Assembly: GCA_030448105.1 (NCBI GenBank)
Contig: JAUJNP010000005.1
Span: forward strand, 170,814-234,813
Source of the DNA: Acidimicrobiales bacterium
Lineage (GTDB): Bacteria; Actinomycetota; Acidimicrobiia; Acidimicrobiales; Iamiaceae
Length of the DNA stretch: 64,000 nt
Direction: 5' to 3'
Below are positions 18,948 through 22,463 of this stretch, in pieces; within the stretch, counting starts at the first letter, position 1; the number at the start of each line of letters is the position of its first letter. The translations under genes and the position numbers were made by a program. The notes beneath the pieces were generated by a model, which worked only from the letters and a program-made list of their open reading frames with translations, had not been told where the DNA came from and did no database searches.

Positions 18948-19013
18948 TGCTACTGGGCGAGCGCCTCCGGCGCTCGCGTGCCGGCTGCTCGCATGGCGCT
19001 CGCGACGCCGGCG
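18948..19013 (+). repeat. ~66-nt GC-rich palindromic dispersed element (family B)
   Basis: tgctactgggcgagcgcctccggcgctcgcgtgccggctgctcgcatggcgctcgcgacgccggcg; about 63/66 identical to the reverse complement of 55286-55351. Contains a 9-bp stem GCGAGCGCC-tcc-GGCGCTCGC (18957-18977). A degenerate head motif tgctagtgggcgag lies at 19035-19048. Confidence 0.9.
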
Positions 19014-19063
19014 CTGCTGGGCCTGTGTTCCGGACGAGCGCCGTGCTAGTGGGCGAGACGGCA

Positions 19064-19084
19064 TCTCGTAGGGTCTCGTAGGGT
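19064..19084 (+). promoter_or_regulatory. perfect 10-bp tandem tctcgtaggg x2 carrying two TAGGGT (TANNNT) boxes; candidate leaderless promoter
   Basis: Units at 19064-19073 and 19074-19083; the second TAGGGT (19079-19084) ends 6 nt before GTG 19091. Pattern-based inference only. Confidence 0.3.
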
Positions 19085-19090
19085 TCGGGC

Positions 19091-19966
19091 GTGGAGCTCA
19101 CTGAGGGGCGGGTTGGCGCCAACGGGCTCACCTTCGCCACCCTCGAGGTCGGCTCGGGCCCTCTCGCCCTCTGCCTCCACGGGTTCCCGGACTCGGCGTG
19201 GGGTTGGCGCCACCTCCTGCCCGCCCTCGCCGAGGCCGGCTTCCACGCCGTCGCCCCCTTCATGCGGGGCTACGCCCCCACCGAGGTCCCCGCCGACGGC
19301 CTCTACCAGACCGGGGCCCTCAGTGCCGACGCCTGCGCCCTGCACGAGGCCCTCGACGGCGACTCCGACGCTGTGCTCGTCGGCCACGACTGGGGCGCGC
19401 TGGCCGCCTACGGCGCCGCCGCCTGGCAGCCCGAGCGGTGGCGCCGGGTGGTGACCGCGGCCGTCCCGCCCACCGCCACCTTGGCCGAGGCGTTCCTCTC
19501 CTACGACCAGCTGCGACGGTCCTGGTACATGTACTTCTTCCTGCACCCACTCGCCGAGGTGGCGGTGAGCCTCGACGACCTCGCCTTCCTCGACCGCCTG
19601 TGGAGCGACTGGTCCCCCGGCTACGACGCCACCGTCGACCTCGCCCACACCAAGGACGCGCTGCGCGGCCCGGCCAACCTGGCCGCCGCCCTCGGCTACT
19701 ACCGGGCCACCCTCGGCACCGGGCCCACCGATCCTGCCCTCGACCCGGTGCAGGCGGCCGGCGCCGGCCCGACCCCCCAGCCCACCCTCTACCTCCACGG
19801 TGCCGCCGACGGCTGCATGGGCGCCGACCTCGCCAAGGGTGCTCTCGCCTCCCTGCCGGCGGCGGGGTCGAGGGTGGAGCTGGTCGAGGGCGCCGGCCAC
19901 TTCCTGCACCTCGAGCGTCCGGAGGTGGTCAACCCCATGATCGTCGACTTCGTCACCGGGGACTGA
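19091..19966 (+). CDS. alpha/beta hydrolase, epoxide-hydrolase-like
   Basis: 291 aa; LHGFPDSAWGWRH, VGHDWGA nucleophile elbow, C-terminal GAGHFLHLERPE. Confidence 0.9.
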   Translation: MELTEGRVGANGLTFATLEVGSGPLALCLHGFPDSAWGWRHLLPALAEAGFHAVAPFMRGYAPTEVPADGLYQTGALSADACALHEALDGDSDAVLVGHDWGALAAYGAAAWQPERWRRVVTAAVPPTATLAEAFLSYDQLRRSWYMYFFLHPLAEVAVSLDDLAFLDRLWSDWSPGYDATVDLAHTKDALRGPANLAAALGYYRATLGTGPTDPALDPVQAAGAGPTPQPTLYLHGAADGCMGADLAKGALASLPAAGSRVELVEGAGHFLHLERPEVVNPMIVDFVTGD

Positions 19967-19969
19967 AGG

Positions 19970-20473
19970 TTGGCGCTCCCCCTCGACGCGGCGCTCCTGG
20001 TGGAGCTGGAGCGCATCAAGCGGCTGAAGTACGCCTACCTCCGCTGTCTCGACCAGAAGTTGTGGGCCGAGCTGCGAGCCCTCTTCGTGGACGACGCCAC
20101 CGCGTCCTACGGCGGTGGCCGCTACGAGCACGACGACGCCGACGCCATCGTGGACTTCATCAGTGACGCCATGGGCGACCCGGGCGTGCACTCCAGCCAC
20201 CGGGTCACCCATCCGGAGATCGACCTCACCTCGCCCACCGAAGCGACCGGCACGTGGGCCCTCGACGACACGGTGATCGACACGCGCTTCGACGTGACCG
20301 TCCGGGGCGCGGCCTTCTACGAGGACCGCTACGTGAAGGTCGACGACCGGTGGCTGATCGCCCACACCGGCTACAAGCGCACCTACGAGGAGGTCTTCCC
20401 CCGCACCTCCATCGAGGGCCTGGTGCTGACCGCCTCGTGGTGGTCCACGCGGGGCCGCAGCGAGCTCGGCTGA
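19970..20473 (+). CDS. NTF2/SnoaL-like fold protein
   Basis: 167 aa; ELERIKRLKYAYLRCLDQKLWAELRALFVDDA...RYVKVDDRWLIAHTGY, typical SnoaL_4-type layout. Confidence 0.8.
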   Translation: MALPLDAALLVELERIKRLKYAYLRCLDQKLWAELRALFVDDATASYGGGRYEHDDADAIVDFISDAMGDPGVHSSHRVTHPEIDLTSPTEATGTWALDDTVIDTRFDVTVRGAAFYEDRYVKVDDRWLIAHTGYKRTYEEVFPRTSIEGLVLTASWWSTRGRSELG

Positions 20474-20475
20474 CG

Positions 20476-21936
20476 ATGACCGCGCCGCCCGAGCGTCGCG
20501 CCCCGGCGCTGCCCGACGGCATCGTCGCCGTGGTGAAGCGGAGTTGTCCCACGTGCGCGCTGGTGGGACCGGTGCTGGCGCAGCTGCAGGCGGCCGGGGT
20601 GGCGTTGACGGCCTACAGCCAGGACGACCCTGCCTTCCCGCCCGAACTCGGCGGCGCGCTCGACGACACGGCCCTCGAGCTGTCGTGGCGCCTCGACCTC
20701 GACACCGTCCCCACCCTCCTGCGAGTCGAGGGCGGGGTGGAGGTGGCTCGCACCGTCGGCTGGTCGCGGGCCGGATGGGAGGCGCTGACGGGCGTGGAGG
20801 GGTTGGGGCCGAGCCTGCCCGAGCAGCGCCCGGGGTGCGGTTCGCTGAACGTCGAGCCCGACCGGGTCGACGAGCTGGCCGTGCGCTTCGGGGGCTCGCG
20901 GCTGCGCAGCCGGCGGGTGGAGCTGGCCGCGCTGGAGGACGAGGTCGAGGCCCTCTACGACCGGGGCTGGACCGACGGCCTCCCGGTGGTCGCGCCCACC
21001 GAAGCGCGGGTGCTGCGGATGCTGGAGGGCACCGACCGGGCGGCCGATGAGGTCGTGGCGGTGGTGCCGCCCGACCTGGTGGCGTGCACGGTGGAGAAGG
21101 TGGCCGTCAACGCAGTGATGGCCGGCTGCCGGCCCGAGTACCTGCCGGTGGTGCTGGCCGCGGTGGAGGCGGCGTGCACCGACGGGTTCAACGTGCACGG
21201 CCTGCTGGCCACGACCATGCCGGTGGGCCCGGTGGTGGTGGTCAACGGCCCGGTGCGCCAGCGGCTCGGGATGAACAGCGGCGTCAACGCCCTCGGCCAG
21301 GGCAACCGGGCCAACCTGACCATCGGCCGGGCGCTCCAGCTCGTCATCCGCAACGTGGGCGGCGGGCGTCCCGGCGAGGTCGACAGGGCGACCCACGGCA
21401 ACCCCGGCAAGCTCTCGTTCTGCTTCGCCGAGGACGAGGAGGGCTCGCCGTGGGAGCCGCTGTCGGTGGAGCGGGGCTTCGCCGCCGGCGCCTCCACCGT
21501 CACGCTGTTCCCGGGCGAGGGCCCCCGCAGCGTGGTCGACCAGCTGTCACGCACGCCCGGGTCGCTGGTGCGCAGCCTGGCCGCCTGCCTGCGCACGGTG
21601 CACCACCCGAAGCTGCCGCTGGCCTTCGACGCCGTGCTCGTCGTCTCGCCCGAGCACGCCCGGGTCTTCCGGGACGCGGGCTGGGACAAGGCCCGCCTCC
21701 GAGCCGAGCTGGCCGAGCTGCTCGCCCTCCCCGGCGCCGAGCTCGTGCGGGGGGCGGGCGGCATGGCCGAGGGCGTGCCCGCCGGGTTGGAGGACGCCAT
21801 GCTCGGAAAGTTCGGGCCCGACGGGTTGCTGATCGTGCACGCCGGCGGCGGGGCGGGGCTGTTCTCGACCATCATCGGGGGGTGGGTGAACGGGGCGACC
21901 GGCTCCACGCCCGTGACCAGAGAGGTGCGCGAGTGA
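20476..21936 (+). CDS. thioredoxin-like (CPTC) domain fused to an unassigned ~380-aa domain
   Basis: ORF 20254..21936; start ATG 20476 (MTAPPERRAPALPDGIVAVVKRSCPTCALVGP). The downstream domain carries RPGCGSLNVEP, RGWTDGLPVVAPT, VAVNAVMAGCRPEY, GNPGKLSFCFAEDE. Confidence 0.75.
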   Translation: MTAPPERRAPALPDGIVAVVKRSCPTCALVGPVLAQLQAAGVALTAYSQDDPAFPPELGGALDDTALELSWRLDLDTVPTLLRVEGGVEVARTVGWSRAGWEALTGVEGLGPSLPEQRPGCGSLNVEPDRVDELAVRFGGSRLRSRRVELAALEDEVEALYDRGWTDGLPVVAPTEARVLRMLEGTDRAADEVVAVVPPDLVACTVEKVAVNAVMAGCRPEYLPVVLAAVEAACTDGFNVHGLLATTMPVGPVVVVNGPVRQRLGMNSGVNALGQGNRANLTIGRALQLVIRNVGGGRPGEVDRATHGNPGKLSFCFAEDEEGSPWEPLSVERGFAAGASTVTLFPGEGPRSVVDQLSRTPGSLVRSLAACLRTVHHPKLPLAFDAVLVVSPEHARVFRDAGWDKARLRAELAELLALPGAELVRGAGGMAEGVPAGLEDAMLGKFGPDGLLIVHAGGGAGLFSTIIGGWVNGATGSTPVTREVRE

Positions 21937-22463
21937 CCATCGTGCTCGACCCCACCGGCGGCCAGGCACCCGCCCCCCGGGCCCGCAGTCCCCGCCCGAC
22001 GGCCCTGGACGGGTGCACGATCGGGCTGCTCGACATCTCCAAAGCACGGGGCGACGTGTTCCTCGACCGTCTGGCCGAGCGCTGCGCCGAGCGGGGTTGG
22101 TCGGTGGAACGCTTCGCCAAGCCGACGTTCACCAAGCCCGCTCCCGCCGACCTGCGCTACGAGATCTCCCAGCGGTGCGACGTGGTGATCGAGGCCCTGG
22201 CCGACTGAGGGTCGTGCACGTCGTGCAGTGTGCACGACATCGTCGATCTGGAGCGCCGGGGGGTGCCGGCGGTCTTCGCCGCGTCCAGCGAGTTCGTCGA
22301 CGCCGCCGCCGCCCAGGCCGTCGCCCTGGGCCTCGACGTGGCCCGCGTGTTCGTGCCCCACCCCATCCAGGACCGCACCGACGACGAGCTGCGGGCGTTG
22401 GCCGACGACGCCTTCGACGCCCTGGTGAGCGCGCTCACGGGAGGCGACCAACCCCGCGGCTGA
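21933..22463 (+). CDS. UGSC-motif selenoprotein candidate (TGA 22206-22208 read as Sec)
   Basis: GTG 21933 overlaps the upstream stop (GTGA). 91 codons (VTIVLDPTGG...VVIEALAD) precede the TGA, then GSCTSCSVHDIVDLERRGVPAV...GGDQPRG follows in the same frame. The track shows this as the end of ORF 21084..22208 plus ORF 22230..22463. Confidence 0.7.
22211..22238 (+). promoter_or_regulatory. SECIS-like hairpin 3' of the in-frame TGA
   Basis: GTCGTGCAC (22211-22219) pairs perfectly with GTGCACGAC (22230-22238), leaving a 10-nt loop. An alternative 8-bp stem 22220-22227/22231-22238 has a GUG loop. Confidence 0.5.

Follow-up and report, generated by a model that had tools for sequence, protein, structure and literature searches.

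What is a selenoprotein gene doing at the end of a tightly packed run of four genes in an Acidimicrobiales bacterium, and which of its neighbours does it work with? The question arises from a stretch of 64,000 nucleotides (nt; hereafter the window) on contig JAUJNP010000005.1 of GenBank assembly GCA_030448105.1 (positions 170,814 to 234,813 of the forward strand). Four genes on its + strand encode an epoxide-hydrolase-type alpha/beta hydrolase (gene 1, 19091-19966, GTG start, 291 amino acids, aa); a SnoaL_4/NTF2-fold, BaiE-like protein (gene 2, 19970-20473, TTG start, 167 aa); a fusion, Trx-X, of a thioredoxin (Trx) module with a domain that we call X (gene 3, 20476-21936, ATG start, 486 aa); and a selenoprotein of the UGSC family (gene 4, 21933-22463, GTG start, 176 aa). 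They are separated by 3 nt, by 2 nt and then by a 4-nt GTGA overlap that places the GTG of gene 4 on the stop codon of gene 3. A first-pass annotation had given these gaps as 3, 2 and -4 nt and read the four genes as one redox module; its sequence-level statements all hold, but our analyses divide the block. Genes 3 and 4 probably form a thioredoxin-driven two-component selenoenzyme, with genes 1 and 2 lying outside the conserved unit.

The case for such an enzyme begins with the company that genes 3 and 4 keep. We compared 82 related loci, 80 from a scan of species-representative genomes and two others (L numbers below denote loci, P numbers representative proteins, G numbers genomes, with G000 the source genome, and C numbers contigs). 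The 80 scanned loci belong to at least eight phyla and come from Actinomycetota, Myxococcota, Chloroflexota, Alpha-, Beta- and Gammaproteobacteria, and also from Spirochaetota, Acidobacteriota, Krumholzibacteriota and Dormiibacterota. In 79 of the 82, the gene immediately after Trx-X is UGSC; the two genes share a 4-nt NTGA overlap in 46 of 77 loci and are spaced by -4 to +30 nt in 66 of these 77. Likewise, when 201 evenly sampled Actinomycetota genomes were searched, UGSC scored above its family cut-off in 14, and X (at E < 1e-60) was present in exactly those 14, always adjacent to UGSC or in one frame with it. The numbers of X and UGSC genes match in the 14 genomes, with an extra UGSC piece in the fragmented draft G199, and all other matches of the X search in the 201 genomes cover the Trx part alone. 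Pfam tallies of the flanking genes yielded no further recurrent partner: upstream, 64 families in 72 genes, including Abhydrolase_1 (11), Lactamase_B_2 (10) and SelB (3); downstream, 82 families in 70 genes, including HhH-GPD (10) and SelA (3). The proposal that the Trx fusion and the selenoprotein are dedicated partners is thus borne out by both adjacency and co-occurrence, and X and UGSC are, by these genomic data, obligate partners.

Fusions point the same way. UGSC and X are commonly joined by nature in single proteins (P0206, P0217, P0259 and P0274-P0281), and nine of ten representatives of ~410-450 aa start just past the Sec (selenocysteine) codon of a fused UGSC; by their sequences, such ~410-450-aa entries are Sec-type UGSC-X fusions cut at the UGA by gene callers. 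In one locus (L097) the order is reversed, UGSC followed by X, and the Trx module is missing. Modelling of the natural fusion P0217 gave a mean predicted local distance difference test (pLDDT) of 93.4 and a predicted template modelling score (pTM) of 0.93, indicating a fixed arrangement of the UGSC and X domains. Two other proteins, P0256 and P0214, were considered as Trx-X-UGSC or N-extended fusions and dismissed, since their sequences look like frameshifted assemblies. The one fusion named in a 2008 paper (PMC2398784) is 'UGSC/Unknown_1', of which Unknown_1 may be X; in the literature searched we found no description of the X partnership, of UGSC-X fusions or of swappable Trx or ferredoxin:thioredoxin reductase (FTR) input modules.

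In a maximum-likelihood tree of Trx-X, the sequences from Myxococcota, Spirochaetota and Krumholzibacteriota nest among actinobacterial ones (L017-L041, L027/L020/L023), which points to exchange of the pair between phyla by horizontal transfer. The pair is judged to be widely distributed and horizontally mobile. As a separate observation on this set of loci, L095 has a P450-like open reading frame after Trx-X, in the place of UGSC.

What, then, does gene 3 contain? The first-pass annotation had described its first ~100 aa as thioredoxin-like with a CPTC motif and had left the remaining ~380 aa unassigned, and structure prediction upheld both statements. The AlphaFold2 model, built on a 56-sequence alignment (pLDDT 94.8, pTM 0.90), has a Trx fold at residues ~10-108 that Foldseek matches to Trx, CcmG and ResA with probability 1.0. 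By sequence, gene 3 as a whole has no match in Pfam, NCBIfam or PDB, thioredoxin models included, and relatives match such models weakly. The fold bears, at a helix N-terminus, C24-P-T-C27 (invariant as C24-x-T-C27; the codons of C24 and C27 lie within 20545-20556) and is followed by a linker with C121 (codon 20836-20838, + strand) in RPGC121GSLNVEP, of which P-G-C-G is invariant. Across 81 Trx-X proteins, C24, C27, C121, C218 and the cis-Pro loop residues V78-P79-T80 are all invariant, and C316 is kept in 77 of the 81.

Domain X itself (~345 aa; residues ~140-486, 20893-21933, + strand) found no match beyond the Trx module in Pfam, NCBIfam and PDB sequence searches up to E = 10, and thus matched no well-known enzyme family. 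It is recognizable by the motifs GWTDGLPVV.PT, NAVMAGC, GQGNRAN.TIGRAL, GNPGK..FCFAE and PEHA, and is rich in invariant Arg, Asn, Asp and His residues. The invariant C218 (21127-21129, + strand), within NAVMAGC, lies between two helices at the N-terminus of the second in the gene 3 model. The Foldseek matches of X are weak, to class I fumarate hydratase (E 5.5e-4, TM scores 0.23/0.34) and to cyanuric acid hydrolase, and with TM at or below 0.34 we did not take either as homology. Although it has no family model, X is far from rare: there are more than 8,000 Trx-X homologues sharing sequence words, the best 120 of them all 72-89% identical, and an exhaustive search gave 6,095 clusters at 50% identity. 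Across phyla, X is 55-75% identical. In six proteins of ~710 aa (P0163, P0176, P0215, P0223, P0231 and P0238) two or three stretches match X, apparently as two tandem copies, which adds a further architecture not yet described for the family; P0163, the only one of the six to be scanned, gave no match in Pfam.

The module ahead of X is exchangeable. It is Redoxin/ResA-like (Redoxin/AhpC-TSA-like) in seven of 56 members (E 1e-16) and resembles the FTR beta subunit in P0183 (E 2e-21). Because Trx-, Redoxin/ResA- and FTR-beta-like versions are swapped on one core, we read the N-terminal module as an electron input, and such swapping is what would be expected if the sequences that follow form a catalytic core.

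The other partner, gene 4, belongs to a family that is already known (PF24696, NF041046; Zhang & Gladyshev, PMC2398784). It matches PF24696 with 154.6 bits (cut-off 25, E 3.5e-45) and NF041046 with 152.8 bits (cut-off 125), and is the sole UGSC copy in the source genome. Its in-frame TGA (U92, 22206-22208, + strand) lies in ...ALAD-U-GSCTSCSVHD..., giving the motif U92-G-S-C95-T-S-C98, and among 38 relatives D91, U92, G93, S94, C95, H101 and D102 never vary, while C98 hardly does. In the related loci this position is encoded by TGA in 76 cases, by TAG in two (both Geodermatophilus, L050:6662-6664 and L066:1947-1949) and by a Cys codon in one (Lysobacter, L087:1687-2319, SD-C-GSCTSC); further Cys-type versions are P0217 and relatives in G032 and G105. 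In the source genome selA and selB are intact neighbours on contig C41, and there are two tRNA-Sec genes (C19:106753-106848 and C31:71509-71604). The family matches, the reading frame, the decoding genes and the TGA/TAG/Cys pattern together sustain the earlier view of gene 4 as a Sec candidate, and its TGA is, on this evidence, read as Sec. The Geodermatophilus loci mark the position as Sec independently: the best tRNA-Sec of G. obscurus DSM 43162 (L108:1501-1595; 65 bits with Rfam), labelled 'tRNA-Pyl' by ARAGORN, has a CUA anticodon, which points to UAG as the Sec codon in that lineage. A second selA/selB-like stretch in the source genome (C19:68828-70755) matches in pieces across several frames and is a pseudogene, an assembly error or contamination of the bin.

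A hairpin directly 3' of the UGA (22209-22245, + strand) is a candidate bacterial selenocysteine insertion sequence (SECIS). At -27.5 kcal/mol it folds no more stably than shuffled sequences do (z = -0.49), and the candidacy therefore rests on conservation rather than on thermodynamics: across phyla, nucleotides are strongly conserved, synonymous sites included, over the 35 nt that follow the UGA. The consensus stem has only 5 bp with little covariation, and an Rfam search for the SECIS of gene 4 gave no match. As to the protein fold, the Foldseek matches listed for the UGSC part of the P0217 model are flavodoxin-like alpha/beta sandwiches (lumazine synthase, CheY, flavodoxin; TM ~0.5), with no solved selenoprotein B structure among them. 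UGSC is thus modelled as a small flavodoxin-like alpha/beta protein, which does not support, and would correct, the Trx-like fold guessed for it in PMC2398784.

The sole outside similarity that we could detect for UGSC is to selenoprotein B of the reductases that act on glycine, sarcosine, betaine and D-proline. The GrdB model TIGR01917 was matched by 27 of 38 UGSC sequences (best E 1.5e-5) and GrdF by 21 of 38, with UGSC residues 79-150, the Sec region, aligning to GrdB 334-400; hhalign also placed the Sec of UGSC on that of selenoprotein B, at a probability of 2.4% with a single-sequence template. The Sec region of UGSC is hence weakly and distantly similar, in sequence, to that of the GrdB/GrdF/GrdH/PrdB selenoprotein B. 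Neither PF09338, the family of the pyruvoyl proproteins GrdE/PrdA, nor PF07355 has a match in the source genome. In some 24 of the 201 Actinomycetota genomes we also noticed stretches of ~120-150 aa, different from UGSC, that match Pfam GRDB over its last third only (~200-345; for example G132:C5:569752-570168) and have no GrdE/PrdA gene beside them.

The partnership, the fusions, the module swapping, the conserved cysteines and the Sec decoding are all observed features of the gene 3-4 pair. For the chemistry, the substrate and the order of the thiol/selenol exchanges we infer the following scheme. UGSC would carry the reactive Sec92 in U92-G-S-C95-x-x-C98, and X would most likely supply the substrate site. 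Sec92 would attack or reduce the substrate held by X, and a selenenyl-sulfide would then form between the oxidised selenium and C95, C98 or C218. Its re-reduction would fall to the tethered Trx domain, through C24/C27 and possibly via the invariant linker C121, and this domain would itself be recycled by the cellular thioredoxin reductase and NADPH.

Several points weigh against this assignment. The substrate site is placed in X by deduction, because X matches no known enzyme family. Three Acidimicrobiia Trx-X genes forming one well-supported clade (L070, L092 and L095) have no adjacent UGSC, and some fused UGSC domains, as in P0259, are devoid of the Sec/Cys motif. The likeness to GrdB is local, with 17.8 bits for TIGR01917 against a cut-off of 602.2; TIGR01918 likewise gave 13.8 bits against 65.45, and Pfam GRDB (PF07355) did not match UGSC at all. 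Comparison of X with the proteins of one actinobacterial locus, L111, was negative both for its GrdE/PrdA-like protein (hhalign probability 0.2%) and for its GrdB-like protein (0.07%), so that a pyruvoyl-type mechanism is not supported. Finally, reviews still list UGSC as uncharacterised (PMC13188914). We nonetheless consider a thioredoxin-driven two-component selenoenzyme the probable identity of genes 3 and 4.

A more specific version can be put forward tentatively. X and UGSC might constitute an undescribed class of Trx- or ferredoxin-driven selenoenzymes, in which a GrdB-like Sec reductively cleaves a carbon-heteroatom bond or reduces another particular metabolite. Equally tentatively, this class would do so with no pyruvoyl subunit and would be widespread in aerobic aquatic and soil bacteria. 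If true, it would account for an 'orphan' selenoprotein family that ranks among the most abundant in metagenomes, and the epoxide-hydrolase-like enzyme co-transcribed with the pair could hint at the class of substrate in this Acidimicrobiia lineage.

Could the pair instead serve in defence or repair? It might be an antioxidant or repair thiol-selenol oxidoreductase, reducing peroxides, sulfoxides or disulfides, and no reductase of carbon-heteroatom bonds in small molecules, with X as a docking domain or one that binds a substrate protein. Bacterial selenoproteins with UxxC motifs are mostly redox or antioxidant proteins (PMC13188914, PMC2398784), the N-terminal modules of some family members are, as described above, of the Redoxin/AhpC-TSA type, and most hosts are aerobes from water or soil, all of which would suit this role. 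The modelled fold of UGSC is, however, flavodoxin-like rather than Trx- or peroxiredoxin-like, and the only similarity detected for UGSC leads to the selenoprotein B reductases. Moreover, the large size of X, its high identity across phyla and its many invariant charged residues are a better fit to an active site specific for a small molecule. An antioxidant or repair role therefore seems unlikely to us, albeit the least unlikely of the alternatives to the two-component selenoenzyme that we have weighed.

The remaining question is whether genes 1 and 2 belong with the pair. Their first-pass identifications proved right. Gene 1 is an Abhydrolase_1 protein (Pfam, E 6e-21) with the HGFP oxyanion motif in HGFPDSAW and the GHDWG Asp-nucleophile elbow in VGHDWGA, and its nearest solved relatives by PDB sequence match are epoxide hydrolases (5ng7, E 1.4e-32). 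Gene 2 matches SnoaL_4 (PF13577) with 92.6 bits against a cut-off of 24, its nearest solved relative being the NTF2-fold bile-acid 7-alpha-dehydratase BaiE (E 4.8e-26). One could then suppose, as the first-pass annotation had in essence done, that all four genes form one pathway, with the hydrolase and the NTF2-like dehydratase making or consuming the substrate that Trx-X and UGSC reduce. The 3/2/-4 nt spacing behind a single promoter signature of leaderless type speaks for it, as does the recurrence of the layout in relatives whose gene 3 is 89% (L103/L104) and 75% (L105, at a contig end) identical. The hydrolase gene is translationally coupled to Trx-X in L001, and is linked to the pair in nine further loci of one Acidimicrobiia clade. 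It is also general knowledge that Asp-nucleophile hydrolases and Sec enzymes of the GrdB type both attack carbon electrophiles.

Distribution, however, tells against a common pathway. A hydrolase of the gene 1 type lies upstream of the pair in 9 of the 82 related loci, all Acidimicrobiia-type, and is absent from the loci of Proteobacteria, Chloroflexota and Myxococcota; a SnoaL gene of the gene 2 type occurs in none of the 82, being found in a few close relatives only (L103/L104, L105 and L106). The complete four-gene layout is likewise confined to close relatives, L103/L104 and L105, whereas L001 and eight further loci have the hydrolase and the pair and no SnoaL. Conversely, L106 retains the synteny and has orthologues of both the hydrolase (68% identity) and SnoaL (73%), with neither Trx-X nor UGSC at the locus, and the two modules are hence separable. 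On the Trx-X tree the hydrolase-linked loci make up 9 of the 19 rows of one Acidimicrobiia clade, from which the window and its nearest relative, L103, group apart; none of the 27 proteobacterial and chloroflexal rows is hydrolase-linked, and the pattern calls for at least seven gains or losses of the hydrolase. The linked loci also share wider synteny (Peptidase_S9, Flavin_Reduct, Lactamase_B_2), so that descent can explain the linkage between hydrolase and pair. An apparent hydrolase/SnoaL-like pair beside a UGSC-X fusion in Actinophytocola (L100) was set aside, the hydrolase there being not orthologous and its 166-aa neighbour not SnoaL-like.

Co-occurrence thus holds for genes 3 and 4 and fails for genes 1 and 2, given the counts above and the separability of the modules: in the neighbourhoods of UGSC genes the Trx fusion is co-conserved and the hydrolase/NTF2 pair is not. 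The notion of four genes as one functional module does not survive these counts, the repeated losses of the hydrolase or the split seen in L106, and we hold a four-gene pathway to be less probable even than an antioxidant role. Genes 1 and 2 are, by their distribution, lineage-specific additions to the transcription unit, or passengers of it, and not constituents of the conserved module. Lineage-specific operon neighbours such as these should not be read as pathway members.

Their place in a shared transcription unit is another matter. Tight spacing in the window and an equal layout in L103/L104 and L105 agree with the earlier suggestion of one operon, and the block is delimited by a divergent gene for a protein of the metallo-beta-lactamase (MBL) fold upstream and by a convergent methyltransferase gene downstream. 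Ahead of gene 1 lies a perfect 10-bp duplication, tctcgtaggg x2 (19064-19083, + strand), specific to this genome and without a counterpart in the closest relative, L103. It is overlapped by the hexamer TAGGGT (19079-19084, + strand), which resembles a -10 element of the form TANNNT and ends 6 nt upstream of GTG 19091, as a candidate leaderless promoter; the coordinates first reported for both are correct. In an alignment of the window, L103 and L001 the spacer has diverged while TANNNT at 6 nt is kept, as TAGGGT, TATGGT and TAGCGT, respectively. A promoter and terminator scan of this region of the window, in which the promoter search used a sigma-70 consensus, found none. A leaderless transcript starting at gene 1, as proposed from the sequence, is plausible and finds support in 9 of 11 hydrolase-linked loci, where a TANNNT stands 6-7 nt ahead of the start codon of the hydrolase in a spacer that has otherwise diverged. 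The four genes probably make up a single leaderless operon that is particular to this lineage or genus.

Two features of the block deserve mention in their own right. Relative to L103, a GC-rich palindromic repeat of ~100 nt is inserted in the promoter spacer (18948-19050 of the window), and gtgcta[c/g]tgggcgag is repeated at ~18944 and ~19043. Genes 1 and 2 share a reading frame with only TGA AGG between them (19964-19972). We considered this in-frame TGA as a site of read-through or Sec insertion and rejected it as coincidental, because L103 has the two genes in different frames.

That the pair merely handles selenium, as a carrier or in delivery, with no catalysis on an external substrate, would be suggested by selB directly upstream of the pair in three loci and selA directly downstream in three, but is very improbable, since such linkage to sel genes occurs in only ~4% of loci, the pair is present in only the 14 of 201 sampled Actinomycetota genomes, and the existence of Cys-type UGSC (L087, P0217 and the relatives in G032 and G105) argues that the Sec residue is catalytic and not cargo.

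A two-component selenoenzyme made of Trx-X and UGSC turns the question of UGSC function into a testable hypothesis about a two-protein enzyme, and material for it exists: G. obscurus DSM 43162 is a cultured host, and natural Cys variants are easy to express. New in the present work are the perfect phyletic co-occurrence of X and UGSC, the Sec-type fusions, the likeness to selenoprotein B, the negative outcome of the GrdE/PrdA comparison and the finding that genes 1 and 2 can be separated from the pair.

Among known systems, reductases fused to Trx or dependent on it (fusions of Trx to MsrA/B, for example) and the catalytic subunit of FTR resemble gene 3 in having an N-terminal CxxC module of the Trx fold tethered to a catalytic domain. 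In gene 3, by contrast, the catalytic domain, X, falls into no described family, and a separate selenoprotein would be the end point of the redox chain. Another parallel is with the selenoprotein B reductases. In D-proline reductase, a carbon of the substrate, which is held by the partner subunit, is attacked by Sec, and the enzyme is then re-reduced (PMC11229817). These reductases and the Trx-X/UGSC pair are alike in having two components, one of them a Sec-bearing subunit with Cys residues shortly after the Sec, and in needing a reductant, a part played by thioredoxin in Grd and by PrdC in Prd (PMC11229817). They differ in that selenoprotein B reductases work with the pyruvoyl proproteins GrdE/PrdA, X having shown no similarity to the GrdE/PrdA-like or the GrdB-like protein of L111, and in that UGSC is much smaller than selenoprotein B and scores far below the family cut-offs. 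In the pair, unlike in these reductases, the reductant domain is fused to the partner, X, and its hosts are mostly aerobic heterotrophs and not Stickland fermenters. UGSC and X are not members of the selenoprotein B reductase family but may work like one.

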